Assembly (NCBI GenBank): GCA_964525455.1
Contig: CAZGHP010000001.1
Span: 8,766-72,765, forward strand
From: an uncultured Candidatus Saccharibacteria bacterium
Lineage (GTDB): Bacteria; Patescibacteriota; SICC01
Length of the DNA: 64,000 bases
Direction of reading: 5' to 3'
In this document: one piece after another, positions 14,195 to 64,000 of the stretch
How the letters are laid out: each line of letters opens with the position of its first letter
Position numbering within the stretch: the first letter of the stretch is position 1
The notes under the pieces: model-generated
Told to the model about the DNA's origin: nothing
The model's database searches: none
What the model saw: the letters and a program-made list of their open reading frames with translations, nothing else
Translations under genes and position numbers: made by a program

Positions 14195-14253
14195 GGTTTA
14201 TAGTTATCTGCTTGCGGCAGCAGGCAATCAGTAGCAAGCTGCAGATACGAAAC

Positions 14254-14280
14254 ACACCGCGCAGGCGGTGTTTTATTTAT
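14254..14280 (+). terminator. rho-independent terminator (ACACCGC-gcag-GCGGTGT followed by TTTATTTAT)
   Basis: Stem-loop plus T-rich run directly after the 13862-14194 gene. Confidence 0.55.
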
Positions 14281-14286
14281 GTGAAG

Positions 14287-15063: not shown

Positions 15064-15106
15064 AATAACAATCGTTCCTAGTAGGACCATTAAAGAATGG
15101 ACTTAA

Positions 15107-16524: not shown

Positions 16525-16756
16525 GTTCTATATTGTGCGACATTTACGCGCGGAAAGCGAGCAGGGGTGTCCGGCAGTACGTACCGGCGTGCCCGGCCGG
16601 ACGCCGGCGGAAAAACAAAAAAGAGAGGATAAAAGTTACGGTAGGTAACGTTTGGTTCCTCTCTTTTCCCCGTCCGGAACATCTTGCGATGCGGCCGCTC
16701 AAGACTTGCAAAGCACGGGGTTGTGGGCCTGTAGGTGGGTCGTGAAAGCGTCTACG

Positions 16757-21074: not shown

Positions 21075-22362
21075 GGCGCAGCGCGGTGCACCGGAGACGT
21101 TCCGGACCCGGGTCCTTAAGAACGGCCTGACCGTGATAACCGTGCCGCGTGCCGGCACCGAGGCCGCGACGGTCAGCTTCCTGTTCCGTGGCGGCAGCCG
21201 GTACGAGACGCCGCGAACCAACGGCATTGCGCACTTCAACGAGCATGCGGTCTTCAAGGGCGGGAAGCGCTACCCTGATTACCGCGCCGTCACCCAGGCG
21301 TTCGACAAGATCGGCGCGATCTCCAATGCGTTTACCGGCGCGGAGGTGACCGGCTTCTGGGCGAAGACGCGGGCGACGCACATCCTCGACGTGGCCGACG
21401 TCTTCTCCGACGTGCTGACCGCCACCGCTTACGACCCGGCCGAGCTCGACAAGGAACGCGGCGTGATCATCGAGGAAATCAACATGTACGAGGACGATCC
21501 GGCCTCCGACCTCTACCAGGTGCTCGAAGCCGTGACGTTCCCGGATCATCCGCTCGGCCGCGCGACGCTTGGGCCGAAGGAGAATATCAAGCGGTTCACG
21601 CCGGATGACTTCCGGACGTACGAGCGGCAGCACCAGACGCCGGACCGCTGCGTGCTGGTGATCGCCGGCAAGGTGGATGGTCTCGACGAGGCGAAGCTCG
21701 ACAAGCTGCTTGGCCGGTTTACCGGCACGAGCGACGTGCGGCCGGAGCCCGCGGCTTTCACGCAGTCCGCACCCCGGCTCCGCGTGAAGTCGAAACCGAC
21801 CGAGCAGACGCACATCGGCCTCACCCTTCGCGCGCCGTCGCTGGCCGACCGGTCAAAGTCGCCGGTTCTCAGCGTACTTGCCCAGCTGCTCGGCGGCACC
21901 ATGAGCTCGCGGCTCTTCACCGAGGTCCGCGAGAAGCGCGGCCTGGCGTACTATGTCCGCGCGATGCCGGACCAGCTTACGGACGCCGGGACGCTCGTGG
22001 TCGCGGCCGGCGTAAAGAACGAACAGGTCGGCGAAGCGATGGAGGCGATCATGCACGAGCTTAAGCGGCTCCGCGACGGAGACCTCGCCGAAGACGAGCT
22101 CGCGATGCACAAGGATTCCCAGATGGGCCGGCTCGCGCTCCGCTGGGAGGATTCGATGGCGCTCGCCGACTTCTACGGCGAACAGCAGCTCCTGCTCGAC
22201 GAGGTCCGGACGACCCAGGAATGGCTGAAGGAAATCGCGGCGGTCGGCCGCGACCAGGTGATCGGCCTGGCCGAGGAAATCATGGTGGGCGAGGGGCTCA
22301 GCGCCGCGGTGATCGGTCCGCACGAGGAGCGGAAGCTTAAGGGCGCGCTGGCGTTCGGGTAG
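21067..22362 (+). CDS. M16 family zinc metallopeptidase (insulinase/pitrilysin-like)
   Basis: Inverted zinc motif HFNEH (HxxEH) near the N-terminus; 431 aa. Confidence 0.85.
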   Translation: MSKAQRGAPETFRTRVLKNGLTVITVPRAGTEAATVSFLFRGGSRYETPRTNGIAHFNEHAVFKGGKRYPDYRAVTQAFDKIGAISNAFTGAEVTGFWAKTRATHILDVADVFSDVLTATAYDPAELDKERGVIIEEINMYEDDPASDLYQVLEAVTFPDHPLGRATLGPKENIKRFTPDDFRTYERQHQTPDRCVLVIAGKVDGLDEAKLDKLLGRFTGTSDVRPEPAAFTQSAPRLRVKSKPTEQTHIGLTLRAPSLADRSKSPVLSVLAQLLGGTMSSRLFTEVREKRGLAYYVRAMPDQLTDAGTLVVAAGVKNEQVGEAMEAIMHELKRLRDGDLAEDELAMHKDSQMGRLALRWEDSMALADFYGEQQLLLDEVRTTQEWLKEIAAVGRDQVIGLAEEIMVGEGLSAAVIGPHEERKLKGALAFG

Positions 22363-31267: not shown

Positions 31268-31391
31268 TATGTCGAAGACACCCTTTGGGTCATCCTGATC
31301 CTCAGGGTTTCTTCGTTTATGAAGCCAAAAGATCGGCCCGCATGGTACTATCGGTAGCTATGCAGCGGGCAACTGAAACCGGTCAGGACTG

Positions 31392-36196: not shown

Positions 36197-37237
36197 ATGG
36201 CGACCAAGCGTTTTCCCGGTTTCATCGATCCACACGTCCATCTGCGGGATCCGGGCGCCACTCAGAAAGAGGACTTCACGAGCGGCACCCGGGCGGCGCT
36301 GGCCGGCGGGTTCACGTTCGTCTGTGATATGCCGAACAACCCCCAGCCCACGGTGTCGCTTGCACGGTTACGGGAGAAGGAACGGCTTGGGGAGGAAAAG
36401 GCCGCCTGCGGTCTCGGTTTCCACTACGGCACTGACGGGAAGAACCTGGAGAGCTTCACGGCCGCCGCCAAGCATCCCCGCGTATTCGGACTGAAAGTCT
36501 ACCTCAATCACACCACCGGCGAGATGCTGATCGAAGACATCGCGGTGCTCCGTGCGATCTTCGAAACCTGGCCGGCGGACAAACCGGTACTGGTACACGC
36601 CGAAGGCGTCCAGCTCGCCGCGGCGCTGTCGCTGGCACACTACTACGACAAACGGCTGCACGTATGCCATATCAGCCAAGCGGTCGAGGTCGAGCTGGTC
36701 CGGGCGGCCAAACGGAAGAAACAGGCGGTGACCGCCGGAGCGTGTCCGCATCACCTCTTCCTGACCGGGGAGGCGCGGGAGACCCACGGTTCCCACGCCG
36801 TAATGAAACCGCCGCTCGGCGAGACCGTGGACCAGGACGCGCTCTGGGAAGGCCTTGCCGACCGGACGGTCGACCTCGTCGAGACGGACCACGCGCCGCA
36901 CACGCTCGAGGAGAAGCAGGCAGACCCGGCACCGTTCGGCGTACCGGGACTGGAGACGGCCGCGCCGTTGCTCTGGAAGGCGGTACACGACGGAAAGCTC
37001 GAGGCCGGCGACGTGCCGCGCCTGTTACACGACGCGGCTCGGAAGATTTTCGCCATTCCGGAACAGCCCGACACGTTCGTGGAGTTGGATCCGGACGAGG
37101 CGTATGAGGTCGACCCGGCTGCGTTCCAATCCAAGGCGAAGTGGTCGCCGTTCGGCGGTTGGACGGCGTACGGCAAGCCGCAGAAAGTGGTATTCCGCGG
37201 CAGGACGGTCATCGAGAACGGGGCGTTCGTCGGGTGA
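36197..37237 (+). CDS. pyrC: short dihydroorotase-like cyclic amidohydrolase (PyrC-like)
   Basis: FIDPHVHLRDPG HxH metal motif, a later DHAPH motif, and it lies directly upstream of pyrB. Confidence 0.7.
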   Translation: MATKRFPGFIDPHVHLRDPGATQKEDFTSGTRAALAGGFTFVCDMPNNPQPTVSLARLREKERLGEEKAACGLGFHYGTDGKNLESFTAAAKHPRVFGLKVYLNHTTGEMLIEDIAVLRAIFETWPADKPVLVHAEGVQLAAALSLAHYYDKRLHVCHISQAVEVELVRAAKRKKQAVTAGACPHHLFLTGEARETHGSHAVMKPPLGETVDQDALWEGLADRTVDLVETDHAPHTLEEKQADPAPFGVPGLETAAPLLWKAVHDGKLEAGDVPRLLHDAARKIFAIPEQPDTFVELDPDEAYEVDPAAFQSKAKWSPFGGWTAYGKPQKVVFRGRTVIENGAFVG

Positions 37238-37247
37238 GGTCCCTCTG

Positions 37248-38162
37248 ATGAATCCGCTTACCGGCACCGATGTCCTGACCGCATCCCAGTTCGGCCCGGA
37301 CCTTTGCTCGCACCTGTTCGCGGAGGCCCGTCGTATGCGGAAAGCCGTGGATGAACATGGCTCGCTCGACCGCTTGGGGTCGAAGGTCCTGATGAATTTG
37401 TTCTATGAACCGTCCACCCGGACGTCCGCTTCATTCGCGGCGGCGATGCTCCGGCTCGGCGGCAAGGTCTTCCCGATCACCGAGATCAGGTCATCGTCGG
37501 TCTCGAAAGGCGAGACACTGGAGGATACGGTGAAGACGCTCGAGCAGTACGCCGACGTGATCGTGCTCCGGCATCCCGAAGCCGGTTCGGCGCAACGGGC
37601 TTCCCAGATCGCCGATATCCCCATCATCAACGCGGGCGACGGCACCGGCGAGCATCCGACCCAAGCGCTGCTCGACCTCTTCACGATCATCGAGGAAAAG
37701 GGCAGCGCCGACGGTCTCACGATCACGCTGCTCGGTGATCTCAAATACGGCCGTACCGTCCACTCGCTGGCCCGGCTGCTCTCGCAATATGACATCCGCC
37801 TGAACCTGGTGTCGCCGAAGTCGTTGGGGCTCCCGCAGGCGGTGCGGGACGACCTCTCCGTGCCGATCGCCGCGCACGAGTCGCTCGCTGCCGTGCTGCC
37901 GGATACCGACGTGCTGTACGTGACGCGCGTGCAGCGGGAGCGGTTCGCTCGGAAGGCCGATTACGATCGGGCGAAAGGCAGCTATGTGGTGAGTCCGGAG
38001 TCGCTCACCGAAGCGAAGGACGATCTTACGGTGATGCATCCGTTGCCACGCGTGGATGAGATCGACGCGCGGATGGATACCGACCCGCGGGCCGCGTACT
38101 TCCGCGAGGTCCGGAACGGATTGTACGTACGGATGGCGCTGCTGGCGCTCGTGTTGGAATGA
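37248..38162 (+). CDS. pyrB: aspartate carbamoyltransferase catalytic subunit
   Basis: STRTS carbamoyl-phosphate motif, HPxQ-like HPTQALLD, and HPLP. Start at the Met at 37248 after a GTGAGG RBS. Confidence 0.92.
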   Translation: MNPLTGTDVLTASQFGPDLCSHLFAEARRMRKAVDEHGSLDRLGSKVLMNLFYEPSTRTSASFAAAMLRLGGKVFPITEIRSSSVSKGETLEDTVKTLEQYADVIVLRHPEAGSAQRASQIADIPIINAGDGTGEHPTQALLDLFTIIEEKGSADGLTITLLGDLKYGRTVHSLARLLSQYDIRLNLVSPKSLGLPQAVRDDLSVPIAAHESLAAVLPDTDVLYVTRVQRERFARKADYDRAKGSYVVSPESLTEAKDDLTVMHPLPRVDEIDARMDTDPRAAYFREVRNGLYVRMALLALVLE

Positions 38163-43876: not shown

Positions 43877-45670
43877 GTGGGCGTGCTGACCCAGCGCCAG
43901 ATCGATCGTTACGTCGAGCATCCCGGATTTACCGATCCGCGGATTTCGGCGAGCGCGACGCGTCGCACCGTCCCGCCCGATATCTGGCGGGCGCTGGAGA
44001 TGGTGCCGGGGTCCATTACCTGGTCAATCTTCATCAGCAGCGTGCTGTTCTCGATCTTCCTGCCGCCGGTCGTCGCCTATGCGATCCTGCTCTTCGACGT
44101 CTACTGGCTGGTCCGTTCGGTCACGCTCTCGACTAACCTGATCCGGGCCTACCGCCGGCTCCGGCGCGATACCCGCGTGGACTGGCAGAGTCGGATCCAG
44201 GCGCTTGAGCGCAGTATCGACACCTACGCCGCCACGCTCCGGCGGGTGATCCGCCGGCTCGACGACGGATGCGAGGGATTCGATCGCTGGCTCTGGCTGC
44301 GCCAGCTCGGCTTCACTAACCGTCGTTTGGCGCAGGACTACCGTGAACTGCGAGAGGAGTTGGAACAGGTCGAGCAGGCGATCGCCGCTCCGGAACCACT
44401 GCCGCGGGCGTCCCGCATTCATCACCTGGTGGTCGTCGCGACGTATACGGAAGACCTGGAGACGTTGCGCCCGAGCTTCCAGGCGCTTGCCGACGCCGCC
44501 TATGACCAGCAGCGGATGATCGTCGTGCTGGCGACCGAAGAGCGGGACAAGACGCGCGCCCGGGCGAACGCGCGGGTGATCCGCCGGGAATTCGGGAAAC
44601 GGTTCAAGCGGCTGATCGTCACTGAACACCCGGCCAACATCACCGGCGAGGTGAAGGGCAAGGGCTCGAACATCACCTGGGCCGGCCGGAAGGCGGTGAA
44701 GGAGATCGACGCGCTCGGTATCCCGCACGAAGAAGTGATCGTGACGACGTTGGACGCCGACCACCGGCCGCATCCGCAGTACTTCGCGGCGTTGACCTAC
44801 CAGTACCTGCTCACGCCGGACCGCCGTTACCGGACGTTCCAGCCCACGCCGCTCTTCCATAACAACCTCTGGCACACGACGGCGATCAACCGCGTGATCG
44901 CCACCGGCTCTTCGTTCTGGCATATGATCGAGTCCACCCGGCCGTACCGGCTGCGCAATTTCGCGGCGCACGCGCAGGGGCTGCAGACGGTCGTGGATAC
45001 GGACTTCTGGTCGGTGGACACGATCGTCGAAGACGGCCAGCAATACTGGCGGACCTATTTCCGCTACGACGGCCGGCACTTCGTGCAGCCGCTCTACGTG
45101 CCGGTCTACCAGGATGCCGTGCTCGGCGATACCTACCCGATGACGCTCAAGGAACAATACCTGCAGCTCCGTCGCTGGGCATGGGGAGCGTCCGACCTCC
45201 CCTACGCGGTGGTCAACGCGGTTCGGAACCGCCGGATCCCTTGGCCGGAGAAAACGCTGCATCTGGCCCGTTTCGTTGAAGGGCACGTGACCTGGGCCGC
45301 CGCACCGATCCTGATCACCTTCGTCGGGTGGCTCCCGATCCTTCTCTCACCGAGCTTCCGGGAGACCCTGTTCGGCCAGACCCTGGCACCGACGGCCAGC
45401 GCCATCCTCACGCTCGCGCTGGCCGGCATCATCGTGACGATCTTCATCTCGATGCTGCTGCTGCCGCCGAAGCCGCCGGGGTACAAGGAACGCCACCGGT
45501 TGATGCATGTCGCGCAATGGATCCTGATGCCGCTGACGACGATCCTGTTCTCGAGCCTGCCCGCGATCGAAAGCCAGACGCGGCTGATCTTCGGCCGGTC
45601 ACTCGACTTCCGTGTCACTCGGAAAGCGAGCCAGGCGCTCCGGCCGATCGCCAAACGGACCAAGGCCTGA
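43877..45670 (+). CDS. membrane-embedded processive GT2 glycosyltransferase (cellulose/chitin/hyaluronan-synthase-like)
   Basis: DAD (DxD) motif, QQYWRTYF, and the QxxRW motif LQLRRWAWG, flanked by TM helices. Confidence 0.78.
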   Translation: MGVLTQRQIDRYVEHPGFTDPRISASATRRTVPPDIWRALEMVPGSITWSIFISSVLFSIFLPPVVAYAILLFDVYWLVRSVTLSTNLIRAYRRLRRDTRVDWQSRIQALERSIDTYAATLRRVIRRLDDGCEGFDRWLWLRQLGFTNRRLAQDYRELREELEQVEQAIAAPEPLPRASRIHHLVVVATYTEDLETLRPSFQALADAAYDQQRMIVVLATEERDKTRARANARVIRREFGKRFKRLIVTEHPANITGEVKGKGSNITWAGRKAVKEIDALGIPHEEVIVTTLDADHRPHPQYFAALTYQYLLTPDRRYRTFQPTPLFHNNLWHTTAINRVIATGSSFWHMIESTRPYRLRNFAAHAQGLQTVVDTDFWSVDTIVEDGQQYWRTYFRYDGRHFVQPLYVPVYQDAVLGDTYPMTLKEQYLQLRRWAWGASDLPYAVVNAVRNRRIPWPEKTLHLARFVEGHVTWAAAPILITFVGWLPILLSPSFRETLFGQTLAPTASAILTLALAGIIVTIFISMLLLPPKPPGYKERHRLMHVAQWILMPLTTILFSSLPAIESQTRLIFGRSLDFRVTRKASQALRPIAKRTKA

Positions 45671-45678
45671 CGCCGGGT

Positions 45679-48012
45679 CTAAGGCGCGCTGACGGTCAGT
45701 GGGAAGTAGATGCCGACGTCCCGGAACCAGGCGGTGCCCTCGATCACGAGATTGAAGTACTCCTTGTAGTTCCCCGGCGCCGGGCTCGCGGTCAGTGGGA
45801 AGGAGAACAGGGCGGTTTCGCCCGGGTCGATCGAGGTGTCCGCGACCGTCGCCAGGGTAGTCAGGTTGGTGACGCGGCCGTCGATGCCGCTGGCACGTCG
45901 GGGTGACAGCCACGGGTCGCTGCCCGAGGTCGTCCGGAACGCGGACGACCGGTCCTTGGGGCGGCTGGTGCCGAGCCGGAGCGGATTGCTTCCGCCGACC
46001 GGCCAGCTTGCCCGCCCTACATTGGTCACCGCCAAGCGGGCGGTCATCGTCGAACCACGAGGAAAGGAGGCAGCGTTTCCGGAAACGTCCTGTTTCTCGT
46101 ACTCATAGGCATGTGGTGGGGCGGTCACCCGGATCGGGAAGTAGATACCGTAGTCCTCAGGCAACCACTGCACGCCATCGAGGACGGGTCGTACGTAAAG
46201 CCGGTAAGTGCCGGGGTCGAGTGTCGGCGGTACGTCAACCGTAAAGCGGAACTCGCCGATTTCGCCGGGATCCACCGTGGTCTCGCCCGGGTCGGTGACG
46301 TTTGCATCGAGGGCAGAGGGACGGGTTTGGGAAATCCAGGGCTCACTGCCGCCCGTGGAGCGGAAGATCGACTGGTGGTCACGGGGCCGATCGGTACCGA
46401 GCCGGAGGTCCCCGCTGACGGGCCAGGATTCCCGGCCGGTATTGCGGAGCCGGAGGACTGCTTGCTGCTCGGTCGTCCCGCTCCCGACCGTGACTGGGGT
46501 GGAAGACTGGGATTCATAGCGGTAGTGGTAACCGCGGTCGAGTACGTTCAGGCCGAACCAGGCGCCGAGGTTCGGCATATGAACCTCACCTTCCACCAGG
46601 GGGTTGAAATACTCCTTGTGGTAACCGGGTTTGTCCGGCGCGGTCACCGTGAACGAGAACGCGCCGATCTCGCCGGTGGTGACTTCGCTGTCCGGGACGA
46701 TGGTTTCGCTGCCCGGGTCGTACCGTCCGTCGAGTCCCGAGGCGCGGTTGCCGGATATCCAGTTTTCCGAGGAGCCGGTGCCGGTCAGGCCTGTCGTCCG
46801 GAACCCACTGGTACGGTCGGTCGGGTTGGCGGTCCCGAGCCGGGTCGGATTACCGCCGCCCGCCGTCCATGGCAGCTCACCGGTATTCCTTACGAAGAGC
46901 TTGAGACTTCGGGTGTCTCCGGGGAGGAGGTTATCCGCGTCGGTTTCCGTCATGTCCGCCGGATCGGAATCCGCGGTAATCCGTTGCCCGACCCACTCGC
47001 CGCGCCAGCCGGGCGGCCGGACGGTCAGCGTGGCGCAGAGCCCCCGGTCCCGCATCCAGACCACGCCTTCGATCATCGGCGCGAAGCATTCCGGCCATCG
47101 CCCGGCGACTTCATGCGATTCGAACGTCGCCCGGAACGTGGCGAGCTGATCGGGCCCGGTGTCGTTCAGGAGTTCGATCCGTTTCGTCCCGACCCAGCCG
47201 TCGGCGCTTCCGCCGTCGGCAAAACCGCTGCCACGGTCCTGCGGACGGATCGTGCCGATCCGCGCCGGGGTGTCGCCGGTGCGCCGCCACGTCTGCTTGC
47301 CGGTATTCCATACCTGGAAGTGCAATTCCGTATCTCCGGTGAACCACATCTCCCGCGCGCCGGCGACCTGATGCGGCACGTAATCATATGCAGCCCGGCG
47401 GGCATTCACGAACGCGGACGGTCCGGTCCACGCCGCACAGCAGGGATACTCATAGCCGTGGATCGAATGGTCATATGAGCCGGTCGAGGCGTTGTATCGG
47501 GCGATCCGGATGCCGAAATGCACGTGCGGATCCCAATTCCCGTTCTGGCCACCGCGCGGTCCGACGGTGCCGATCCTTTGCCCTTTAAGTACGGCTTGTC
47601 CCGCCCTCACCTTGCGATCGTTGCCGAGATGGCCGTACAGGCTGAGCACCTTGCCGCCGGAGGTCGTCGTGTGCTCGATGATGATCAGGTTGCCCCAGCG
47701 GTAGGAGTCCGGCGTGCGGGCGGAATACTTCACCACGCCGTTCCCGGCTGCGAAGACGGCCCGCCCGGCTTGGTGGCAGGAATCCTCAGCGACGTGGTAC
47801 CCCCATCCGGAGACGTACTGCCGGAAGGCGTAGTTCGGTTTGTTGTAGGGAAAGCAGGGAATCTGGTAGCTGGTCGCCGCGGCCTTGGCCTCGCCGCTGC
47901 CCAAGCCGAACAGGCCGAGCATGAGCCCGACACAGAAGACGATTACGCAATATGTGATTTTATGTCGTATCCCCACTACCTCCGTAGTATCAAATCGCCG
48001 CCGGTACTGCAA
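45679..48012 (-). CDS. large secreted protein: N-terminal M23 (LytM) peptidase domain plus ~5 copies of an unassigned ~110-aa repeat
   Basis: M23 motifs YGHLGNDRKV..GQ.V.KGQRIG and HVHFGI. The repeat carries RNTG..W..G...RLGT.RP.DR.S.F ... PGE..F.F ... G.YKEYF.PV.EG..W. Confidence 0.75.
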   Translation of the reverse strand: MQYRRRFDTTEVVGIRHKITYCVIVFCVGLMLGLFGLGSGEAKAAATSYQIPCFPYNKPNYAFRQYVSGWGYHVAEDSCHQAGRAVFAAGNGVVKYSARTPDSYRWGNLIIIEHTTTSGGKVLSLYGHLGNDRKVRAGQAVLKGQRIGTVGPRGGQNGNWDPHVHFGIRIARYNASTGSYDHSIHGYEYPCCAAWTGPSAFVNARRAAYDYVPHQVAGAREMWFTGDTELHFQVWNTGKQTWRRTGDTPARIGTIRPQDRGSGFADGGSADGWVGTKRIELLNDTGPDQLATFRATFESHEVAGRWPECFAPMIEGVVWMRDRGLCATLTVRPPGWRGEWVGQRITADSDPADMTETDADNLLPGDTRSLKLFVRNTGELPWTAGGGNPTRLGTANPTDRTSGFRTTGLTGTGSSENWISGNRASGLDGRYDPGSETIVPDSEVTTGEIGAFSFTVTAPDKPGYHKEYFNPLVEGEVHMPNLGAWFGLNVLDRGYHYRYESQSSTPVTVGSGTTEQQAVLRLRNTGRESWPVSGDLRLGTDRPRDHQSIFRSTGGSEPWISQTRPSALDANVTDPGETTVDPGEIGEFRFTVDVPPTLDPGTYRLYVRPVLDGVQWLPEDYGIYFPIRVTAPPHAYEYEKQDVSGNAASFPRGSTMTARLAVTNVGRASWPVGGSNPLRLGTSRPKDRSSAFRTTSGSDPWLSPRRASGIDGRVTNLTTLATVADTSIDPGETALFSFPLTASPAPGNYKEYFNLVIEGTAWFRDVGIYFPLTVSAP

Positions 48013-48030
48013 AAAGGCGAGTATTCGCCG

Positions 48031-50793
48031 CTACGACCCGGGAGTCGGCGAGGGAGACCCGGACGTGCCGGCTGACGATGTGACGTTCAAGGGAATGAAC
48101 AACGCATGGTCGGGGAACCACGCTACGCCTTCCTGGACGAGCGAGAAATATTCCTGGTGGCTGCCGACCTGCGCGGCCGTCAGGGTAAAGCGGAAGAGCG
48201 CGACCTCGCCCGGCTTGATCTCGTCGGCCGGAACCATCGCCAGGGTGGCGAGGTCCGTCACCTTGCCGTCGATGCCGCTGGCACGGTTGGTGGCCGACCA
48301 CGGGTCGCTGCCGGCAGTGGTACCGAACGCGGAGCCGCGGTCCTGCGGACGGGCCGTCCCTAGCTTGACGGTGTTCGCACCCGTGACCGGCCAGGCGTAA
48401 CGCCCGGTGTTGCGGACGGCGACCCGTACCTCGACCTGGTCGTCCAGTGACAACTGTCCGGGATCCCGGGAGTAGCGCTTGTCCAGGACCTCGTAATCAT
48501 AGTTCGCCGAGGTGATCGTCACCGGCAGGTAGATGCCGAGGTCCGGCAACCAGGTCCTGCCCTCCTGCACGAGATTGAAGTATTCTTTGTAGCTTCCCGG
48601 ATTGAGTGACGGGTCGACCTTGAGCGGCACCGTGAACTGCGCGACTTCGCCCTGCTTGATCTCATCCGCGGGCTGGACTTGGTCGCTCGCACCCACCTTG
48701 CCGCCGATCTGTGCGGCACGGTTCGCACTGAGCCAGCCGGTGCCATCCTCGAGCACCGCGAAGCCGGAGGGCCGGTCTTGCGGACGGAACGTCCCGAGCC
48801 GGACCGCGTTGTTGCCGTTTACCGGCCACGCGGTCTGTCCGAGGTTCTTCACCCGGAGGACTGCCTCGATCACGTCGCCGTACTTGGCGTCGGACGGGTC
48901 TTCGGAGTAATGCTGCTCGACCACGGCATAGTCGTATGCCGGCGATTCCACTTTCACGGGTACGTACATGCCGTAATCCTCGGGGAACCAGCCTTCGCCT
49001 TCCGCGACCGGCCGGAAATACTCCTGATAGCCTCCGTCCGGCTTGGTCTTGCTCTCGACCGCGAAGTCGAAACGGGCGACTTGGCCGGGGTCCACTGCAT
49101 CTTCGCCCGGCGCATCCGCGACGTCGTCGATCGTGCTGGCGCGATTCGGCGCGACCCAGTCGTCTCCCCGGAACGCCGAACTGCGGTCACGGGCGCGGTC
49201 GGTGCCGAGCCGGACGTTGCCCCCGACCTGCCACGGCTTTTGGCCGGTGTTCCGGAGGTACAGTCGTGCCGTGGCATCACCACCTTCGAAAGCGACCGGA
49301 TCCGGGTTCTCCTGCTTGACCCATGCGTAATGGTAGCCGCCCGGCAGTACCCGTAGCGAGAAGTACATTCCGAGGTCGTTCAACCAGCGGTCGCCCTCGA
49401 GTACCGGCCGGAAGTATTCCTTGTAAGTGCCGGGCTTGCTCGGTGCCTTGATCGTGAAGGAGAAGACCGCGATTTCGCCCGGATCGATCTTCGGGTCGGC
49501 GAGGACTTGGTTACTGGATGGGTCGAGCCGCCCGTTCAGCCCGGACGGGCGGCTGGCACTGATCCAGCTCTCGCCGCTCGGTACCCCGTCACGCGACGTG
49601 GTCGCGAAACCGCTCCGCCGGTCGCGTGCCCGGTCGGTAGCAAGTCGGAGCGGGGATGACCCGCCGCTGTGCCACGCGAAGTCGCCAGTATTCTTGATGT
49701 AAGCTTTCAGGTTGATTTTCCTGCCGCCCGCGAGGTAATCATCCTGGTCGGTGGTCGCTCGGGAGGTCGGCGACAGTTCGAGGTGGGCGCTCTGGCCGTG
49801 CCACTGCGCCCGATACGTGTAGCCCTGCACCTTGATGCCGGCGTAGATTCCGATATCGTGCATCCAGCCGACGCCCTCCACCACCGGCGTGAAGTACTCG
49901 CGGTGGCTTCCCGGGCCGACGTGGCTGTTGTTGAACCGTGCCCGGAAGACTCCAATGTGCCCCGGAGGTGTGTCGGATTGCAGCGCGATCCGGTTGGGGG
50001 AATGCCAGCCATGTCCGCCCATGCCCTTGGAGAACGTGCTGTTCCGGTCGCGCGGCCGTGAGGTGCCGAGCCGGACGGCATTCTCGCCGTTGGCCTGCCA
50101 GGTCACCTGCCCGGTGTTCTTCAGGCGGAACTCGACATAATGTTCTTCCGTCTTCGCCCGGGTGCCGCCGCCACTCTGGCCGACGTACTGGTAACTGTAG
50201 TAGTTCTGCCGGGACGTAATGTAGCGGCTGGGGTGCGCGTAGCTTCCCAGTTTACTCGCCGGCTCATAACCATGGATCGCCGACCAGTAGGTACCGGTGG
50301 CTGCCCCGTACGCACCAAGCCGGACCGCGAAGTGGAGGTGGTCTCCCCAGCGTCCGTTCTCCCGGGTATTGCTCGGCCCGATCGCGCCAATGTGCTGCCC
50401 CTTGCTGACCCGCTGGCCGGCACTGACGCGGCGGTTATTGCTCAGGTGTCCGTACAGGCTGGTGGCCTTCGAGCCGTCCGGATTGGTGTGCTGGATCATG
50501 ATCAAGTTGCCCCATCGCCAGGAATCCGGCGTCAGGGCGGAGTAGACCACGGTACCGTCGGCGATCGCATGGACCGGCGTGCCGGCGCTGCAGCCGATGT
50601 CCTGGCCGGCGTGGTAGCCCCAGCCGGAGACGTATTGGCCGAAATTATAGCCGGAAAGCTGGTACGGACTGCAGGGGTACTGGTAGCTGGTGGCAGCAGC
50701 CTCGGCGCGTGCGGGGCTGCCGACGATACCGACCAGAACGGCGGCGACCGCAGTGATTCCAATCAAAAGCCTGGCTGTGTAGCTGCTGTGCAT
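48031..50793 (-). CDS. paralogous large secreted protein: M23 peptidase domain plus 5 copies of the same ~110-120-aa repeat
   Basis: Signal peptide; M23 YGHLSNNRRV...HLHFAV. Five repeats share VRLGT.RPRDR.S.F and G.Y.EYF.PV.EG..W blocks. Its N-terminus is paralogous to 45679-48012. Confidence 0.75.
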   Translation of the reverse strand: MHSSYTARLLIGITAVAAVLVGIVGSPARAEAAATSYQYPCSPYQLSGYNFGQYVSGWGYHAGQDIGCSAGTPVHAIADGTVVYSALTPDSWRWGNLIMIQHTNPDGSKATSLYGHLSNNRRVSAGQRVSKGQHIGAIGPSNTRENGRWGDHLHFAVRLGAYGAATGTYWSAIHGYEPASKLGSYAHPSRYITSRQNYYSYQYVGQSGGGTRAKTEEHYVEFRLKNTGQVTWQANGENAVRLGTSRPRDRNSTFSKGMGGHGWHSPNRIALQSDTPPGHIGVFRARFNNSHVGPGSHREYFTPVVEGVGWMHDIGIYAGIKVQGYTYRAQWHGQSAHLELSPTSRATTDQDDYLAGGRKINLKAYIKNTGDFAWHSGGSSPLRLATDRARDRRSGFATTSRDGVPSGESWISASRPSGLNGRLDPSSNQVLADPKIDPGEIAVFSFTIKAPSKPGTYKEYFRPVLEGDRWLNDLGMYFSLRVLPGGYHYAWVKQENPDPVAFEGGDATARLYLRNTGQKPWQVGGNVRLGTDRARDRSSAFRGDDWVAPNRASTIDDVADAPGEDAVDPGQVARFDFAVESKTKPDGGYQEYFRPVAEGEGWFPEDYGMYVPVKVESPAYDYAVVEQHYSEDPSDAKYGDVIEAVLRVKNLGQTAWPVNGNNAVRLGTFRPQDRPSGFAVLEDGTGWLSANRAAQIGGKVGASDQVQPADEIKQGEVAQFTVPLKVDPSLNPGSYKEYFNLVQEGRTWLPDLGIYLPVTITSANYDYEVLDKRYSRDPGQLSLDDQVEVRVAVRNTGRYAWPVTGANTVKLGTARPQDRGSAFGTTAGSDPWSATNRASGIDGKVTDLATLAMVPADEIKPGEVALFRFTLTAAQVGSHQEYFSLVQEGVAWFPDHALFIPLNVTSSAGTSGSPSPTPGS

Positions 50794-51290
50794 TTGTGTA
50801 TTCCGCGAACCCCAAAAATTGTGTTATCTTAGCAAAAAAAGGATGCTTTGTCAAGTGTTTTTGGCTCATTTAAGCGGTTTTTAAACCAGCCCGTACATTG
50901 CGGGGAACAAAACAGAGCCCCGGCGCACGCGCCAAGGCCCTGTTTCCCTCTCGGGGTTTTTTTGTTGACGGTCCCTAGGAACCGATAAATGCCACAGACG
51001 GATCAATCCGCCGTGTTTTTGTTTTCATTACCAGTCTACGCCCCGGGTCGTATTACCGGAAATAATCCGCCAACTAAAAAGTGACTTAGTTAAGGAATAA
51101 ATGCTTTACTTCATACATCCCGGATTTTCCATATCGGTCGTGGATGGGGAAAACCCGCACCTTTCAAATTTCTCGCCCTGCTGTCAAGTGCCGAAGCGGG
51201 GTGCCGGTCATATCTTGTGCACGGTTGCTTCGGGGCCGGTACGGCCCGCGCCCGTTCGGCTGGCTCCCGCAGGCCGGGTACACTGAGGGC

Positions 51291-52400
51291 ATGCTCCCGT
51301 CCGCCGCCCTTTGGCTCGCTCCGCTGCTGGCGTTTACCGCCGCGATCTTGCTGACCCCGCTGGTCGGCCGGTTTGCCCGGCGCGTCGGCATCGTCGACCG
51401 GCCGGGTGGACGGCGGATCCACCGCAGCGTGACGCCCCGCCTCGGCGGTGCCGCGGTCCTCGGTGCGTTCTTCGTCGGATTCTTCGTCTTCTTTCCGGAA
51501 CTCGCGCCGAACTTCCGGCCCGGGCAGCTCCTCGTATTCTCCCTGACGGCCCTGTTCCTGTTGGCAGCCGGTTTCGTCGACGACTGGCGCGGCCTGCCGC
51601 CGGTCGTGCAGTTGGGAACGCATGTCCTTGCCGGGCTTTCGCTGGCTGCGGCCGGGATGGCGATCGAGGAAGTCACGAACCCGTTCGGCGGCAAGATCCC
51701 ACTTGACCAGTTCCAGTTCGTGCCGCCGTTCGATGTCGGGGGGCGGACGCTGAACCTGCCGGCGGACCTGATCACCGTGGTATGGGTGGTGCTGGTGATC
51801 AATGCGATCAACTGGCTCGACGGTCTCGACGGGCTGGCGGCCGGGGTCGGTGGGATCGCGGCCCTGACCGTCGCGCTGCTTTCGCTTTCCGCGGTGGTCG
51901 GCCAACCGCACGTCGCGCTGCTGGCCCTGCTGCTGGCCGGTAGCCTGGCCGGGTTCCTGCTCTATAATTTCCATCCCGCCCGGATCTTCCTCGGCACGAT
52001 CGGTTCGACGTTCACCGGGTATGTACTGGCGACGCTGGCCGTGATCTCCGGCGGCAAGGTCGCGACCGCGTTCCTGGTGCTCGGGTTCCCGATCCTCGAC
52101 GCGTTGACCATCGTCATCCGCCGGATGGCCGTCGGCGCCGCTCCCTGGCAGGCCGACACCCGGCACCTCCACCATCTCCTGCTCCAGCGCGGCTTCAGCG
52201 TGCGCCGGGCGGTCCTGTTCCTATATGGTATTTCCGCGGTCTTCGGCGTGACGGCGCTCCTGGCCGGCACCACGAGGCGCAAGGTCCTGATGGCGGCGTT
52301 ACTGGTCCTGTTGCTCGGCGGGTTGCTCCTTTGGCTGAGCCGGACCGCGCTCATCCCGCGGGAGCCCCCTACAGGGAGCGGCAGGAAGACGGTAAGCTGA
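51291..52400 (+). CDS. wecA: UDP-GlcNAc:undecaprenyl-phosphate GlcNAc-1-phosphate transferase family (WecA/TagO-like, MraY superfamily)
   Basis: DRPGGRRIHRSVTPRLGG and NAINWLDGLDGLA motifs. The N-terminal pattern fits WecA rather than MraY. Start at the Met at 51291 after a GAGGG RBS. Confidence 0.8.
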   Translation: MLPSAALWLAPLLAFTAAILLTPLVGRFARRVGIVDRPGGRRIHRSVTPRLGGAAVLGAFFVGFFVFFPELAPNFRPGQLLVFSLTALFLLAAGFVDDWRGLPPVVQLGTHVLAGLSLAAAGMAIEEVTNPFGGKIPLDQFQFVPPFDVGGRTLNLPADLITVVWVVLVINAINWLDGLDGLAAGVGGIAALTVALLSLSAVVGQPHVALLALLLAGSLAGFLLYNFHPARIFLGTIGSTFTGYVLATLAVISGGKVATAFLVLGFPILDALTIVIRRMAVGAAPWQADTRHLHHLLLQRGFSVRRAVLFLYGISAVFGVTALLAGTTRRKVLMAALLVLLLGGLLLWLSRTALIPREPPTGSGRKTVS

Positions 52401-54903: not shown

Positions 54904-56399
<1,496 letters not shown>

Positions 56400-56400
56400 C

Positions 56401-57246
56401 ATGCCGAATACCCGCGACATCAAGCGGCGGCTCGGCTCGATCGACAACATCCGGCAGATTACCCGGGCGATGGAGATGGTGGCCGCGACCAAGATGCGCC
56501 GCGCGCAGGACGGCGTGCTGGCCGCGCGCGCGTACGGCGAGAAAGCCCGCGAGCTCCTCACCGCGGTAGCGGCGGAGGACGTGGGTCATGACCAGCCGTT
56601 ACTCGTACGCCGGCCGGTCAAGCGGACCGCCGTGGTCCTGATCTCGACCGACCGCGGGCTTTGCGGAGCGCTCAATACGAACGTGCTCAAGGCCGGCCTC
56701 ACCGCGGCCGGTTCACCCGGTCAGGCGAGCTTCATCACCGTCGGCCGGAAGGCGGAACAGGCCCTGGCGGCCCGGCGCCTCCCACTGGCGGCTAGCTTTA
56801 TGGGGCTGCTCGACACGCCGCGCTACGAGGAAGTGCTGCCGATCGCGGAACTCCTGATCAGCGAATTCACGAAAGGTACGTTCGACGCGATCGACCTGGT
56901 GTACCCGCGGTTCGTCTCGACGCTCCGGAACGAGCCGGTCACAGAGCGGCTGCTGCCGTCCGACCTGCCGGAACGGGAATCGGGATCCGCGGCGCTTCTC
57001 AGCTTCGAACCGAGTGCCGAAGAGGTGCTCTCCGCGCTGCTCCCGCGCCTGATCGAGATCAGCCTGTTCACGGCCCTGCTCGAGACCAAGGCCTCGGAGC
57101 ATTCCGCCCGCATGCTCGCGATGCGAAACGCCACCGGCAACGCCGAGGACCTGCTCGAAGGGCTCCAGCTTTCGTACAACCGCGCCCGCCAGCAGGTGAT
57201 CACCACCGAGATCGCGGAGATCGCCGCGGCATCCGCGGCGAAATAA
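56401..57246 (+). CDS. atpG: F0F1 ATP synthase subunit gamma
   Basis: IKRRLGSIDNIRQITRAMEMVAATKMRRAQ N-terminus and the C-terminal helix of gamma. Confidence 0.92.
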   Translation: MPNTRDIKRRLGSIDNIRQITRAMEMVAATKMRRAQDGVLAARAYGEKARELLTAVAAEDVGHDQPLLVRRPVKRTAVVLISTDRGLCGALNTNVLKAGLTAAGSPGQASFITVGRKAEQALAARRLPLAASFMGLLDTPRYEEVLPIAELLISEFTKGTFDAIDLVYPRFVSTLRNEPVTERLLPSDLPERESGSAALLSFEPSAEEVLSALLPRLIEISLFTALLETKASEHSARMLAMRNATGNAEDLLEGLQLSYNRARQQVITTEIAEIAAASAAK

Positions 57247-60165: not shown

Positions 60166-60662
60166 GGCGCTTTCTCCTGATCGATACCGCGGCCGAGCCG
60201 TCTGTGGCGGCGATTGCCACCAGCCGGTCGGTACTGGCGGAGGCGACCGTACCGGACCGGAAGCGCTTATCCGAGGAGCTGCTGGCCCGGATCGACACCC
60301 TGAGCCGGGAGGCGCAGCAACCGCTTGCAGGCATCGCGGCGATCGGCATCGTGACCGGTCCCGGACCGTTCACGGCCCTGCGGATCGGGGTGGCCATAGC
60401 GAACGCGCTGGCTTATGCCCACCGTATCCCGATCGTCCCGGCGGAGAAGCCGGAAGTGGCGTCGGTGCCGGCCTTCGCCTCGTTGGTGGCGGAACGCCTG
60501 GAGGCCGGCAAGACTGCCCGGGCGGTCCTTCCTAGCTATGGCCGCGAACCGTCGATTACTCCGCCGAAACGCGGTACACCGTCACCGGGCCGTCCGTCTG
60601 TCCGGAGCCGGCGGGGAACCGCTCCCACACCGGATACCGACGGGCGAAGAACCGCTCGTTGA
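60162..60662 (+). CDS. tsaB: TsaB (YeaZ)-like tRNA t6A protein, shortened form (~166 aa)
   Basis: LLIDTAAEPSVAAIA and TGPGPFTALRIGVAIANALA motifs. ATGA overlap with tsaE. Confidence 0.72.
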   Translation: MRRFLLIDTAAEPSVAAIATSRSVLAEATVPDRKRLSEELLARIDTLSREAQQPLAGIAAIGIVTGPGPFTALRIGVAIANALAYAHRIPIVPAEKPEVASVPAFASLVAERLEAGKTARAVLPSYGREPSITPPKRGTPSPGRPSVRSRRGTAPTPDTDGRRTAR

Positions 60663-62604
60663 CGGTAAAGCCTTCATCGCCCCGTTCCGCCGGCCCGATG
60701 ACCACGAAGTCCACGCCGTAGTGCCGGAGCAGGGCGGGTGTTTCCGGTACCCCTTCGTACATCCGCCTGACGTCGTCCTCCCGCTCGGCATACTCCAGGC
60801 CGTAGCTCCAGAGCCAGCCGGTGTAGCCCAGCAGCAGCCGCTGGCCGGCCAGGGAGGCGAAGGGATTGTTCACTTGCTGGGCCGTCAGCCAGATCGAATC
60901 CGGCGCGGCCGACTCGCGGGCCGCCATCGCGATCCGCTGGGCACGCTCATCGAACATCGCCGCCCGGTAATGGTTCGGCGGGAGCGTCCGGGTGACATCC
61001 GCCAACCCGGCCAGGACCAGGAACGGGAAGATGGCAATGACAGACGCCTTGCCAACCCGGCCCCGTCCGAACAGCCAGACCAGGAACGCGCTGACCGCGG
61101 GAATGCTCAGGACCAACCAGTACACCAGGAACTTGGTATTGTCCCAGTCCCACGGCTGGAATACGAGCAGGTTCGTGAGCACCCAGACGATACCGGCCGC
61201 GAGCGTGAACCGGAGCAGAAGCGAATCGCGTCCGCGCAGCCAGAAAAAACCCATCAGCAGGAGCGGCAGGAACAGTCCGAGGTTCTTCAGCCAGAACCAG
61301 GGGAGGAAATCCCCGTGTGCCGTCCAGCCGAATTGCGGACGCAGGAACGCGGTCGCCTGGACGCCGGCGGAAAGCCAGAGTACCTGCGGCAACGCAAGCA
61401 GCAGGATCGGTACGACGAAATAGAGCCACGGCCTGAGGTACTTCCAGCGGAAGCGTCTGCGTCGGCGCCCCGCGAGCCGCTTCCAGGTGAGGAGTGCCAA
61501 CCCGGGGGTCAGGAGCCCCAGGAACACCAGCGAGTGGGTGTGTACCAACGGCAGCAAGGCGGCGATGAGGCCGGCGGCCAGGAACGGCTCGCGGGGCGCC
61601 CGGTCGCGTAATCCTGCGTAGAGCAGGCAGAGGACGGTCAGGGTGATCGGCAGGCCGAAAAGGAATGCCCGCTGCGGAATGATATACGCGAAGATCGGGT
61701 TGATGAAGTTGATGTTCGACACCGGCACCTCCCCGAAGGTCAGGGTGTATTCGTGCGGGAGATTCCGGAGGAATTCACCGAGCGGCATGCCGGAGGCGGA
61801 AAGGTCGGTGAAGAAGTTGACGAAACCGAGGCCGCCGAACGCATAAAACAGTACGGCACCGACGAGCATCGTTCCCGGCCCGGCGGTCAAGCGGAGCAAC
61901 GCGGTGAGCATGCCGAGTCCGGAGATCACCAGCAGTACTCCCGGGATCTTCATGGCGGTCAGTAGCCCGAACCCCCCGGTGACTAGCAGTGCCGAAGCGA
62001 AGTTCGTGAGCAACGGATAGGTTATCTTCTGTCCGCTAAGCACGGTCTGTTCCGGCGGGAAGTTCTCGCCGTACGCGAAACTAGTGGTCTGGGCGAGATG
62101 CTGGTTCCAGTCGCCCCAGACGTTACTGAATCCGACGTAGATCGTGCCGCCCTCGGCGAAGAGCGCCTGCCACATGATCACGCCGAGCGCTGCGGCCAAA
62201 CCGCCGAACAGCACCGCTCCCACCCGGAACGGCCACGTCCGCAGCCGGGCACGCACATCGGCGAATTCTTCACGTATCCGCCGACGGACGGCGGCACGCC
62301 GCCAGATTGCCACGGTTCCCACCGCTCCGAGCAGAGCCGGTACCAGCAGGGCACCGGCATCCATGCCGAACAGCAACGCGTAGACGAAACCGGTCAGGCC
62401 CCCGGCGGCCAGTCCGATCGGCACGCCGGCGAATACCCGTTCCTCGATCCGGAGCGCGAGCGGCAGCAGACATGCGAGGGAAAACCCGAACGCGACGGTC
62501 GAAAGCAGGAAGAATATTCCCAACATACTTACCAGCCTAGCTCGCCCGGTGCCCCGCGGTCGAGGTGGTATAGTGGGATGGCAATGATAAAGGAACCATC
62601 CCAT
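60556..62604 (-). CDS. large polytopic membrane protein with C-terminal soluble domain (possibly a GT-C-fold glycosyltransferase; family uncertain)
   Basis: 682 aa with more than 12 TM helices. Its 3' end overlaps tsaB convergently by ~107 nt; the true start may be the internal Met at 62526. Confidence 0.5.
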   Translation of the reverse strand: MGWFLYHCHPTIPPRPRGTGRARLVSMLGIFFLLSTVAFGFSLACLLPLALRIEERVFAGVPIGLAAGGLTGFVYALLFGMDAGALLVPALLGAVGTVAIWRRAAVRRRIREEFADVRARLRTWPFRVGAVLFGGLAAALGVIMWQALFAEGGTIYVGFSNVWGDWNQHLAQTTSFAYGENFPPEQTVLSGQKITYPLLTNFASALLVTGGFGLLTAMKIPGVLLVISGLGMLTALLRLTAGPGTMLVGAVLFYAFGGLGFVNFFTDLSASGMPLGEFLRNLPHEYTLTFGEVPVSNINFINPIFAYIIPQRAFLFGLPITLTVLCLLYAGLRDRAPREPFLAAGLIAALLPLVHTHSLVFLGLLTPGLALLTWKRLAGRRRRRFRWKYLRPWLYFVVPILLLALPQVLWLSAGVQATAFLRPQFGWTAHGDFLPWFWLKNLGLFLPLLLMGFFWLRGRDSLLLRFTLAAGIVWVLTNLLVFQPWDWDNTKFLVYWLVLSIPAVSAFLVWLFGRGRVGKASVIAIFPFLVLAGLADVTRTLPPNHYRAAMFDERAQRIAMAARESAAPDSIWLTAQQVNNPFASLAGQRLLLGYTGWLWSYGLEYAEREDDVRRMYEGVPETPALLRHYGVDFVVIGPAERGDEGFTVNERFFARRYPVWERFPAGSGQTDGPVTVYRVSAE

Positions 62605-64000
62605 GGATACGGTATTGTTACTGATCGTGGCTGCGGCAGCGGGAGCTGGTCTCGGTTACGCGATTTTTTCAAATCGCGGCAAAGGACAGCAGGAACGCGC
62701 GCACGCCAAGGCTGAGAAGGAACTCGCGGAGGCGGAGACCAAGGCCAAGGATATCCTGCTCAAAGCGCAGGATGATTCGCTGAAGGCCAAGGAATCCGCC
62801 CAGGAAGACGTCCGGGACCGTCGGAAGCAGCTGGAAGCGACCGAGTCGCGGCTGGCTTCCCGAGAACAGAACCTCGATCGCAAGGAAAAGCAGCTTGAGG
62901 AAAGGCTCGGACAACTTGAGAAGGACCGCGAGCAAGCCAAGACGTTGAAGGAGGAGATCGCCGAGGTCAAGGAGCGCCAGGTACAGAACCTGGAGAAAGT
63001 CGCCAAGCTCACCCAGGCCAAGGCCAAGGACGTGCTACTCAAGATGCTTGAGAAGGAGTTCTCCGAAGAGTTCGCACGGAAGATCCACGACCTTGAGGAA
63101 CAGGCCAAGGAAGAGGGCGAGCAGCGGGCGAAGAAGATCATCGCCGCTTCGATCCAGCGCTACGCCGCCGATCAGTCGGCGGAGCTCACGGTGACGACCG
63201 TCCAGATCCCGAACGAGGAGATCAAGGGTCGGATCATCGGGAAGGAAGGCCGGAACATCCAGTCGTTCGAGAAGGCGACCGGTGTGGACATCATCGTCGA
63301 CGACACGCCGGACACGATCGTGATTTCCGGCTACAACCCGGTGCGGCGGCAGATCGCCCGGATCGCCATGGAGAAGCTGGTATCCGACGGACGGATCAAC
63401 CCGTCGCGGATCGAGGAAGTGGTCGGCAAGGCCGAGAAGGAAGTGAACCAGATCGCCAAGAAGGCCGGAGAAGAGGCGGTCTACGAACTCAAGCTGAGCG
63501 GCCTCAATCCGGACCTGGTGAAGCTGCTCGGCACCATGAAGTTCCGGACTTCCTACGGCCAGAACATCCTCAAGCACTCGGTCGAGGTGAGTTTCATCGC
63601 GCAGATGCTGGCCGGCGAGCTCGGCGTGGACGCGACCAAGGCCAAGCTGGTCGGCCTGTTCCATGACATCGGCAAGGCCGTGACCCACGAGGTCGAAGGG
63701 CCGCACGCGTTGATCGGCCGCGACATCTGCAAGAAGTACGGCCTGCCGGAGGACGTCTGCCACGCGGTCGGCGCGCACCATGAGGACCTGCCGATCGAGT
63801 CCACGCTCGACATCATCTGCCAGGTCTCCGACGCGATCTCAGGTGCCCGCCCGGGCGCGCGGCGCGAAAGCTACGAGCAGTACGTCAAGCGCCTCCAAGA
63901 ACTGGAGAACGTGGCGAACGCCTTCGACGGCGTGGAAAAGACCTACGCGATCCAGGCCGGCCGCGAGATCCGGATCCTCGTGAAACCGCAGGAGATCGAC
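62603..64000 (+). CDS. rny: ribonuclease Y, 5' portion (3' end outside window)
   Basis: N-terminal TM, coiled-coil, KH domain IIGKEGRNIQSFE, HD domain LFHDIGKA...HH. No stop before the window edge. Confidence 0.92.
   Translation, partial: MDTVLLLIVAAAAGAGLGYAIFSNRGKGQQERAHAKAEKELAEAETKAKDILLKAQDDSLKAKESAQEDVRDRRKQLEATESRLASREQNLDRKEKQLEERLGQLEKDREQAKTLKEEIAEVKERQVQNLEKVAKLTQAKAKDVLLKMLEKEFSEEFARKIHDLEEQAKEEGEQRAKKIIAASIQRYAADQSAELTVTTVQIPNEEIKGRIIGKEGRNIQSFEKATGVDIIVDDTPDTIVISGYNPVRRQIARIAMEKLVSDGRINPSRIEEVVGKAEKEVNQIAKKAGEEAVYELKLSGLNPDLVKLLGTMKFRTSYGQNILKHSVEVSFIAQMLAGELGVDATKAKLVGLFHDIGKAVTHEVEGPHALIGRDICKKYGLPEDVCHAVGAHHEDLPIESTLDIICQVSDAISGARPGARRESYEQYVKRLQELENVANAFDGVEKTYAIQAGREIRILVKPQEID

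Follow-up and report, generated by a model that had tools for sequence, protein, structure and literature searches.

Two adjacent genes on the minus strand of a 64,000-nucleotide stretch of DNA from an uncultured Candidatus Saccharibacteria bacterium (contig CAZGHP010000001.1; the whole stretch is called the window below) raise the question of what the long repeat arrays in their products are, and what an M23 peptidase that carries such an array acts upon. An initial annotation had placed two open reading frames (ORFs) of 777 and 920 amino acids (aa) here, and we confirmed both exactly; they are referred to as gene A and gene B, respectively (Table 1). It described their products as giant paralogous secreted proteins with an M23 peptidase domain and an array of a repeat that could not be assigned to a named domain. 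A tandem pair of paralogues with an intact M23 domain, a predicted secretion signal and a C-terminal array of Ig-like beta-sandwiches is indeed what we find, but with mature forms of 80-97 kDa the proteins are large rather than giant, and the central claim of novelty fails, as the repeat is assignable to PF16158 (N_BRCA1_IG, the Ig-like FW domain of NBR1) by Pfam, by a profile search of the PDB and by existing annotation. We consider A and B probably to be secreted modular peptidoglycan endopeptidases that are held on a wall polymer by their multivalent FW arrays. As a modular secreted wall hydrolase the locus itself falls into an ordinary class and is already auto-annotated in public databases; FW arrays on hydrolases, found mostly in the candidate phyla radiation (CPR), constitute a large family that is undescribed in the searchable literature.

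Measured over the whole proteins, A and B reach 42.5 and 60 bits against PF16158 (gathering score 28), while hidden Markov model (HMM) searches with single units from the window remain sub-threshold at 13-27 bits and the first unit of each array (A1 and B1) gives no match. From a diverse set of homologues, 38 of 73 units matched PF16158 singly at E <= 0.01, and 53 of the 55 array proteins sampled from the wider family matched it with up to 90 bits (see below). When a profile of the 73 units was run against the PDB, the human NBR1 FW domain (4OLE) was the sole match (E 0.041), and a more diverse profile that includes the first strand gave E-values of 1.7e-4 for 4OLE and 0.003 for the Chaetomium Nbr1 FW domain (7VQO); a phmmer search of the PDB with protein P0088 returned no match. 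Relatives of A and B carry the NCBI names 'NBR1-Ig-like domain-containing protein' and 'peptidoglycan DD-metalloendopeptidase family protein'. The beta-sandwich or Ig-like flavour that had been sensed in the repeat is borne out by an AlphaFold2 (AF2) model of a single unit (predicted local distance difference test, pLDDT, 95.5; six main strands), whose six-stranded Ig-like fold is superposable on solved FW domains with Foldseek TM-scores of 0.57-0.66. On these profile and fold comparisons we take the repeat to be a divergent member of PF16158, a family that is named and structurally solved although it lacks an established bacterial function, and the original view of a repeat with no well-characterised counterpart thus survives by half. 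Candidate assignments to NPCBM_assoc, CARDB, fn3_5 and HYDIN-like domains were ruled out as the primary one, these matches being sporadic, sub-threshold and overlapping on the same units. A fold search against viral structures gave generic Ig-like matches only (E >= 0.02), with no sign that phage lysins use the module.

The repeat and the FW (four-tryptophan) domain of NBR1 and ILRUN have in common the core L-x-P-G-x10-N-T-G-x3-W, whereas an insertion of 20-30 residues and a block of its own, RLGT..P.DR.S.F...W...NR, set the repeat units apart from canonical FW domains. The motif blocks listed in the initial annotation are real, with 13 columns invariant across the nine copies of A and B. The consensus of the family-specific block across 682 units is R-L-G-T-x-x-P-x-D(75%)-R(81%)-x-S(85%)-x-F(77%)...W(96%)...N-R(96%), after which come E-Y-F, E-G-x-x-W and D-x-G. 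By profile alignment to the Chaetomium protein (CtNbr1), the strongly conserved polar and aromatic residues of these units (D57/R58/S60/F62, W67, R72, E104, E111 and W115) lie on strands beta3 and beta5 and on the beta3-beta4 and beta5-beta6 loops. In the cryo-electron microscopy structure of the CtNbr1 FW-Ams1 complex, it is with these elements that the domain contacts its cargo Ams1 at interface I (PMC9233695). The tryptophan after NTG (W40) is 100% conserved and aligns with that of the NBR1 'VKW' motif, the F of EYF (F 80%, W 8%) stands at the position of the beta5 'SHW' tryptophan of NBR1, and W67 and W115, which are conserved in the repeats, are candidate equivalents of the remaining FW tryptophans. 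The dipeptide pocket of the CtNbr1 FW domain is made up of F651, D654, D658, W672 and W763; F651 and W763 flank a free N-terminal Gly-Gly, whose amine is bound by D654 and D658 (PMC9233695). In the repeats the corresponding first strand has the consensus Y-x-[W/Y/A]-x-x-V-x-Q over the 682 units, in a segment whose alignment is uncertain; with the same uncertainty, the pocket aromatics are plausibly kept (beta1 Y 64% and W/Y 54%; beta6 Y/F/W) and the D654/D658 positions hold no conserved Asp or Glu, the candidates being Gln (76%), Val or Ser.

Both genes encode the M23/LytM endopeptidase domain that had been annotated, with PF01551 (Peptidase_M23) matches well above threshold (61.5 bits for A and 78.1 bits for B, against a cut-off of 28.7), and both proteins align to solved M23 enzymes in the PDB, among them LytM, lysostaphin, zoocin A, ShyA and, with the best E-value (3.6e-10), a further M23 peptidase, the alignment of B including HLHF. 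Taking the H and D of HxxxD and the second His of HxH as zinc ligands, and the His of GH and the first His of HxH as catalytic, the set is complete in A (H73/D77, H128 and H163/H165) and in B (H61/D65, H116 and H152/H154), and these positions are invariant in 36 homologues; the concern that catalytic residues might be absent on close alignment is thereby dispelled. The M23 domains are basic (isoelectric point, pI, 9.1-9.4) and the repeat arrays acidic (pI 5.3-6.0).

The N-terminal signal sequence claimed for both proteins is present as a hydrophobic leader that ends in AKA in A and in ARA in B. Across 36 aligned family members, a short basic n-region and a hydrophobic core are followed by AxA and then directly by the conserved mature N terminus AATSYQxPC, and from this pattern we read the leaders of A and B as cleaved Sec signal peptides. 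In the full-length model of A a helix is predicted at residues 16-34, at low pLDDT. As we saw no further transmembrane-like segment and no C-terminal anchor in A or B, any retention of the two proteins would have to be non-covalent. The leader of A depends on which start codon is used, the candidates being TTG at 48012 (codon 1), GTG at 47976 (codon 13) and ATG at 47922 (codon 31). The true start probably lies 12-30 codons downstream of the TTG, at 47976 or 47922: GGAGG is located 2 nt upstream of the GTG, the public gene call begins at the ATG, alignments of orthologues to A start at residue 15, and the putative TTG falls within the T-tract of a small hairpin that follows the stop codon of B. 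Protein B is identical to the public protein P0001, which is encoded on a 170-kb public contig.

About five copies of the repeat had been counted in each protein, which holds for B (five) and not for A (four), and the repeat period, with its linker strand, comes to about 140 aa rather than the 110-120 aa given before. Every one of the nine copies scores 120-136 bits against the family profile, and no other repeat-bearing ORF occurs in the window. The further claim that duplication of the genes is clear from their DNA, with long segments repeated, goes too far, as nucleotide similarity is confined to patches of 20-93 nt (60-86% identity) where the conserved motifs are encoded. The two proteins share 44% identity and the individual repeats 30-52% with one another, and from these values we judge the pair to be an old duplication, that is, ancient paralogues. 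Repeat A4 pairs best with B5 (52% identity, the top value of the repeat matrix), and B4 looks like the additional internal unit. About 55 homologues exist in two stable forms, with four repeats (~735-820 aa) or five (~900-950 aa), and the position-specific lengths of the repeats are conserved across them. A recent duplication or an assembly artefact was ruled out on the divergence of the copies and on the synteny of the pair in several independent assemblies.

The module extends far beyond this locus. An exhaustive HMM search of 1.84 billion representatives (clusters at 50% identity) yielded 7,388 representatives at E <= 1e-3, of which 3,598 lie at E <= 1e-10 and 927 at E <= 1e-30, and many members hold 3-15 copies. 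FW, a hallmark of the eukaryotic autophagy receptor NBR1, here forms a very large family of tandem and, by prediction, extracellular arrays. The usual plan among the best 150 members has 3-5 repeats after an N-terminal region of 260-430 aa, with the array ending almost always at the exact C terminus; only four of these 150 contain M23. Catalytic partners among the homologues of A and B are M23 (~56), SpoIID together with S8 (9), Amidase_2 (5) and S8 alone (2), while a stratified sample of other array proteins (n=55) contains Amidase_2 (12), SpoIID (9), S8 (5), CHAP (1), GH6 (1), GH113 (1), Glyco_hydro_cc (2) and GSDH (2). A non-catalytic FW module is, in other words, recurrently fused to wall hydrolases of the M23, Amidase_2, SpoIID, CHAP and S8 types, and among the proteins sampled the arrays show a preference for peptidoglycan-cleaving domains, mostly on their C-terminal side. 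Where source labels are present, they read Parcubacteria, Microgenomates, CPR3, Patescibacteria and Saccharibacteria, with one Dormibacteraeota. In the searchable literature we found no paper linking PF16158 to wall hydrolases or to CPR bacteria, and no experimental report of FW binding to peptidoglycan or another wall polymer.

Several members of the family merit a mention of their own. P0100, a five-repeat protein labelled Candidatus Dormibacteraeota, either shows that the family truly extends beyond Patescibacteria or was assigned to the wrong bin. P0120, P0129, P0146 and P0223 (1,232-2,286 aa) have 11-15 FW-type repeats, and P0252, in the 90%-identity cluster of P0223, is 3,958 aa long; such very long proteins may be fibrillar surface proteins made from the same module. 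A 1,473-aa protein that combines SpoIID, four FW repeats and a subtilase (S8) is encoded in loci L008 (8001-12422) and L009 (3959-8380), directly upstream of a ComEC-like competence channel gene.

The gene pair is part of a cassette in the order ATP synthase operon, GT4 gene, M23-FW genes and 597-aa GT2-like gene, and this order is kept in relatives at 58% (L002) and ~52% identity (L006/L007). The GT4 flank, whose top NCBIfam match is WecA (108 bits, under the cut-off of that model), is syntenic in L001, L002, L003, L004 and L006, and the GT2-like flank is syntenic and 65-86% identical in relatives. L006 (9001-16778) and L007 (4561-12338) encode three tandem M23-FW paralogues (768, 942 and 791 aa) within the same GT4/GT2 cassette, so that paralogue number differs between lineages, from 2 to 3. 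A single-protein scan identified the three closest loci (76-78% identity), which are labelled 'Patescibacteria group bacterium' or 'uncultured Candidatus Saccharibacteria bacterium', and the reduced genome assumed by the initial annotation is consistent with Patescibacteria and Candidatus Saccharibacteria relatives on contigs of 574-812 kb. Compared to the closest relatives, A and B are 76-78% identical and their neighbours 84-89%; compared to L002, the values are 57-58% and 73-81%, respectively.

On balance, these data lead us to favour the following model for A and B. The signal peptide would be removed at the conserved AxA motif, the basic M23 domain at the N terminus, which has the full Zn-binding and catalytic set, would cut the peptide cross-links of peptidoglycan, and the C-terminal array of four (A) or five (B) FW domains would retain the enzyme non-covalently and multivalently on a wall polymer, by analogy with SH3b, LysM and CW-binding/choline-binding repeats. 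The two ancient paralogues are kept in tandem within a conserved envelope-biogenesis neighbourhood, where their primary role would be the remodelling of the cell's own wall in growth and division. The multivalent binding array put forward in the initial annotation is plausible and gains strength from the association of the repeat with wall hydrolases: binding is suggested because the array is recurrently fused to enzymes acting on insoluble wall polymers, because these proteins have no other means of retention, because the loop residues are more conserved than a spacer requires, and because the conserved residues are on the side by which the FW fold is known to bind its ligand. We regard remodelling of the own wall as the most likely primary role because of the stable synteny in an envelope-biogenesis neighbourhood (the GT4/GT2 cassette next to the ATP synthase operon), and the conservation of repeat number and repeat lengths across the ~55 homologues likewise counts towards an own-wall or housekeeping role. 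Several points speak against this model. All FW ligands that have been defined by experiment are proteins (PMC9233695, PMC3357945), and the acidity of the arrays is unlike that of many wall-binding modules for anionic polymers. About half of the N-terminal regions in the sample of 55 array proteins have no Pfam match, such that the hydrolase association is strong and not exclusive. Cleavage of the signal peptide was judged by eye from its pattern, and the full-length model of A is confident for each domain (pLDDT 90.7) with a predicted TM-score (pTM) of 0.61 that does not fix the arrangement of the five domains. Finally, A and B diverge ~1.6-2 times faster than their neighbours, which would also fit a role in host interaction; faster divergence is typical of secreted proteins, however, and in itself favours no hypothesis.

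A host-directed function is the alternative that we take most seriously, as a possible yet unlikely one: M23-FW proteins would be secreted onto an actinobacterial host, the array recognising the host wall and M23 opening the peptidoglycan for attachment or feeding. The relatives are labelled Saccharibacteria, whose cultivated members are epibiotic parasites (PMC8080830, PMC11623550), degradation of host walls has been proposed for the peptidoglycan hydrolases that CPR bacteria secrete (PMC8080830), A and B lack an anchor that would hold them on the producing cell, and to this the variable paralogue number and the faster evolution relative to the flanking genes can be added. Position, synteny, repeat number and repeat lengths are nonetheless stable over deep divergence, whereas greater variability is usual for host-range determinants, and A and B are the only ORFs with an M23 domain in the 64-kb window. 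A host-wall role could also be limited to one of the paralogues. More doubtful still is the broader idea that bacterial FW domains are a widespread extracellular wall-recognition module of CPR bacteria, for the host or own wall, that is ancestral to the cargo-recognition domain of NBR1; as part of this idea, M23-FW proteins would possibly latch on to free peptide ends or cross-bridges exposed by M23, echoing the Gly-Gly pocket of NBR1. If it were true, it would give a role to bacterial FW domains, suggest an origin for the cargo-recognition domain of an autophagy receptor and point to enzymes by which epibiotic CPR bacteria may interact with their hosts.

The array might instead bind no ligand and serve as a passive Ig-like stalk or a surface-layer component by which the enzyme is spaced or scaffolded in the envelope, with the N-terminal helix possibly kept as a membrane anchor. 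Tandem Ig-like arrays are common as rods in bacterial surface proteins, and family proteins of 2,000 aa or more have arrays of 11-15 copies. We find a stalk improbable, since it needs an anchored end, while AxA, by its position directly before the conserved mature N terminus, points to cleavage and the C terminus lacks an anchor; moreover, many polar, charged or aromatic loop residues are 75-100% conserved over the 682 units, beyond what a spacer needs, and the catalytic domain would sit at the membrane-proximal end, the wrong orientation for outward presentation. The M23 domains could also be those of catalytically dead regulators that activate amidases in the manner of EnvC or NlpD. LytM factors of this kind, EnvC and NlpD, lack the Zn-binding and catalytic residues. 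A and B show a weak NCBIfam similarity to ActS, NlpD and EnvC, all far under the respective cut-offs, but with all residues of HxxxD, GH and HxH in place and invariant in homologues an inactive LytM factor is ruled out, and a regulatory function of this type is extremely improbable. Should the arrays bind the wall, as the favoured model of a wall-retained endopeptidase holds, this would be the first function for a bacterial FW domain and a handle to localise or engineer CPR lysins, and it would provide a short list of enzymes for division or host-attachment roles in tractable Saccharibacteria.

Table 1. Positions of the M23-FW genes, their parts and their flanks in the window.
Feature	Position	Strand	Basis
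Gene A, predicted secreted M23 peptidase with four FW-type repeats	45679..48012	-	777-aa ORF from TTG
A leader and predicted signal peptide (aa 1-44, ...GEAKA)	47881..48012	-	Hydrophobic core aa 23-37, AxA motif
A M23 catalytic region (aa 45-204; Pfam match aa 79-171)	47401..47880	-	PF01551 E 9e-17
A repeat 1 (aa 205-333, short form)	47014..47400	-	Alignment and family profile
A repeat 2 (aa 337-492)	46537..47004	-	Alignment and family profile
A repeat 3 (aa 495-631)	46120..46530	-	Alignment and family profile
A repeat 4 (aa 634-777), reaching the C terminus	45682..46113	-	PF16158 match aa 653-759; single-unit match 22.7 bits
Gene B, predicted secreted M23 peptidase with five FW-type repeats	48031..50793	-	920-aa ORF from ATG; Pfam M23 and PF16158
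B predicted signal peptide (aa 1-30, ...SPARA)	50704..50793	-	Strongest 15-aa hydrophobic window aa 10-24, AxA motif; orthologues alike
B M23 catalytic region (aa 31-193; Pfam match aa 60-159)	50215..50703	-	PF01551 E 6e-22
B repeat 1 (aa 194-324, short form)	49822..50214	-	130 bits against family profile
B repeat 2 (aa 328-484)	49342..49812	-	130 bits; single-unit PF16158 match 27.3 bits
B repeat 3 (aa 487-617)	48943..49335	-	120 bits
B repeat 4 (aa 620-762), unit used for modelling	48508..48936	-	
B repeat 5 (aa 765-906), counterpart of A repeat 4	48076..48501	-	127 bits
Short hairpin and T-tract directly after B stop codon, overlapping A TTG	48016..48029	-	Weak
Sigma-70-like promoter upstream of B (TTGACA, 17 nt, TAAGAT, TG before -10)	50826..50854	-	Consensus match only
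Conserved flank, GT4-family polyprenyl-phosphate sugar-1-phosphate transferase (WecA/TagO/MraY-like)	51144..52400	+	PF00953 E 1.9e-32
Conserved flank, 597-aa multi-pass membrane GT2-like protein	43877..45670	+	PF13632 (Glyco_trans_2_3) 23 bits, below gathering score

The region of the two genes has a G+C content of ~0.65, equal to the rest of the window. The promoter-like site upstream of B matches 10 of 12 positions and is the sole such site within 45400-51300, and terminator-like sites are no commoner in the region than in shuffled sequence. The spacer between B and the divergent GT4 gene (50794-51143), which contains the promoter-like site, is unusually long at 350 bp and AT-rich, and a G+C-rich imperfect palindrome is located inside it at about 50910-50965; an Rfam scan of this spacer had Hrs1 as its sole, non-significant match (E 0.86).

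Elsewhere in the window, the G+C content dips to 0.51 at 13858-16527, compared to 0.62-0.65 in the remainder. The dip covers two ORFs without Pfam match (13858-15060 and 15107-15544, both on the plus strand) and an adjoining minus-strand gene for a tyrosine recombinase of the phage-integrase family (15547-16527; PF00589, E 1.9e-44). This stretch may be a small foreign insert, but XerC/D is an equally good reading of the recombinase. No Pfam match at E <= 1e-5 was obtained for four large ORFs (468-699 aa; 5292-6707, 9705-11108, 54936-56585 and 60559-62655), and the genes at 6584-8296, 21052-22359, 31377-33272 and 36807-38159 encode a PD40 beta-propeller repeat protein, an M16 peptidase, a RelA/SpoT-domain protein and an ornithine/aspartate carbamoyltransferase, respectively.

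Among known systems, A and B resemble lysostaphin, LytM and zoocin A, which are secreted, as predicted for A and B, and combine an M23 domain with full HxxxD, GH and HxH motifs and a separate non-catalytic C-terminal module. The lysostaphin-type enzymes use a wall-targeting SH3b or TRD module, whereas A and B have four to five tandem FW domains in place of SH3b, TRD or LysM and, unlike those systems, come from a Patescibacteria bacterium with a reduced genome. Bacterial FW domains have been described as sporadic, mostly single C-terminal copies, notably in cytoplasmic helix-turn-helix regulators of the XRE type from Proteobacteria, Actinobacteria and Chloroflexi (PMC3357945, Marchbank et al. 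2012). The placement of FW at or near the C terminus of otherwise diverse proteins is shared with the present family, in which, by contrast, tandem arrays of 3-15 copies are attached to predicted secreted wall hydrolases, mainly in CPR bacteria. The eukaryotic FW domain, for its part, is a single cytosolic copy in an autophagy receptor, as opposed to the putatively extracellular tandem arrays on hydrolases seen here. Also close to A and B are the SpoIID/LytB-FW-S8 and Amidase_2-FW proteins of Patescibacteria (P0057-P0069, P0058/60/64/76), whose arrays of 2-5 copies belong to the same repeat subfamily (30-40% identity) and occur in the same or related genomes as M23-FW; they differ from A and B in their catalytic partner (lytic transglycosylase-like SpoIID, amidase or subtilase) and in their locus, for example beside ComEC in L008.

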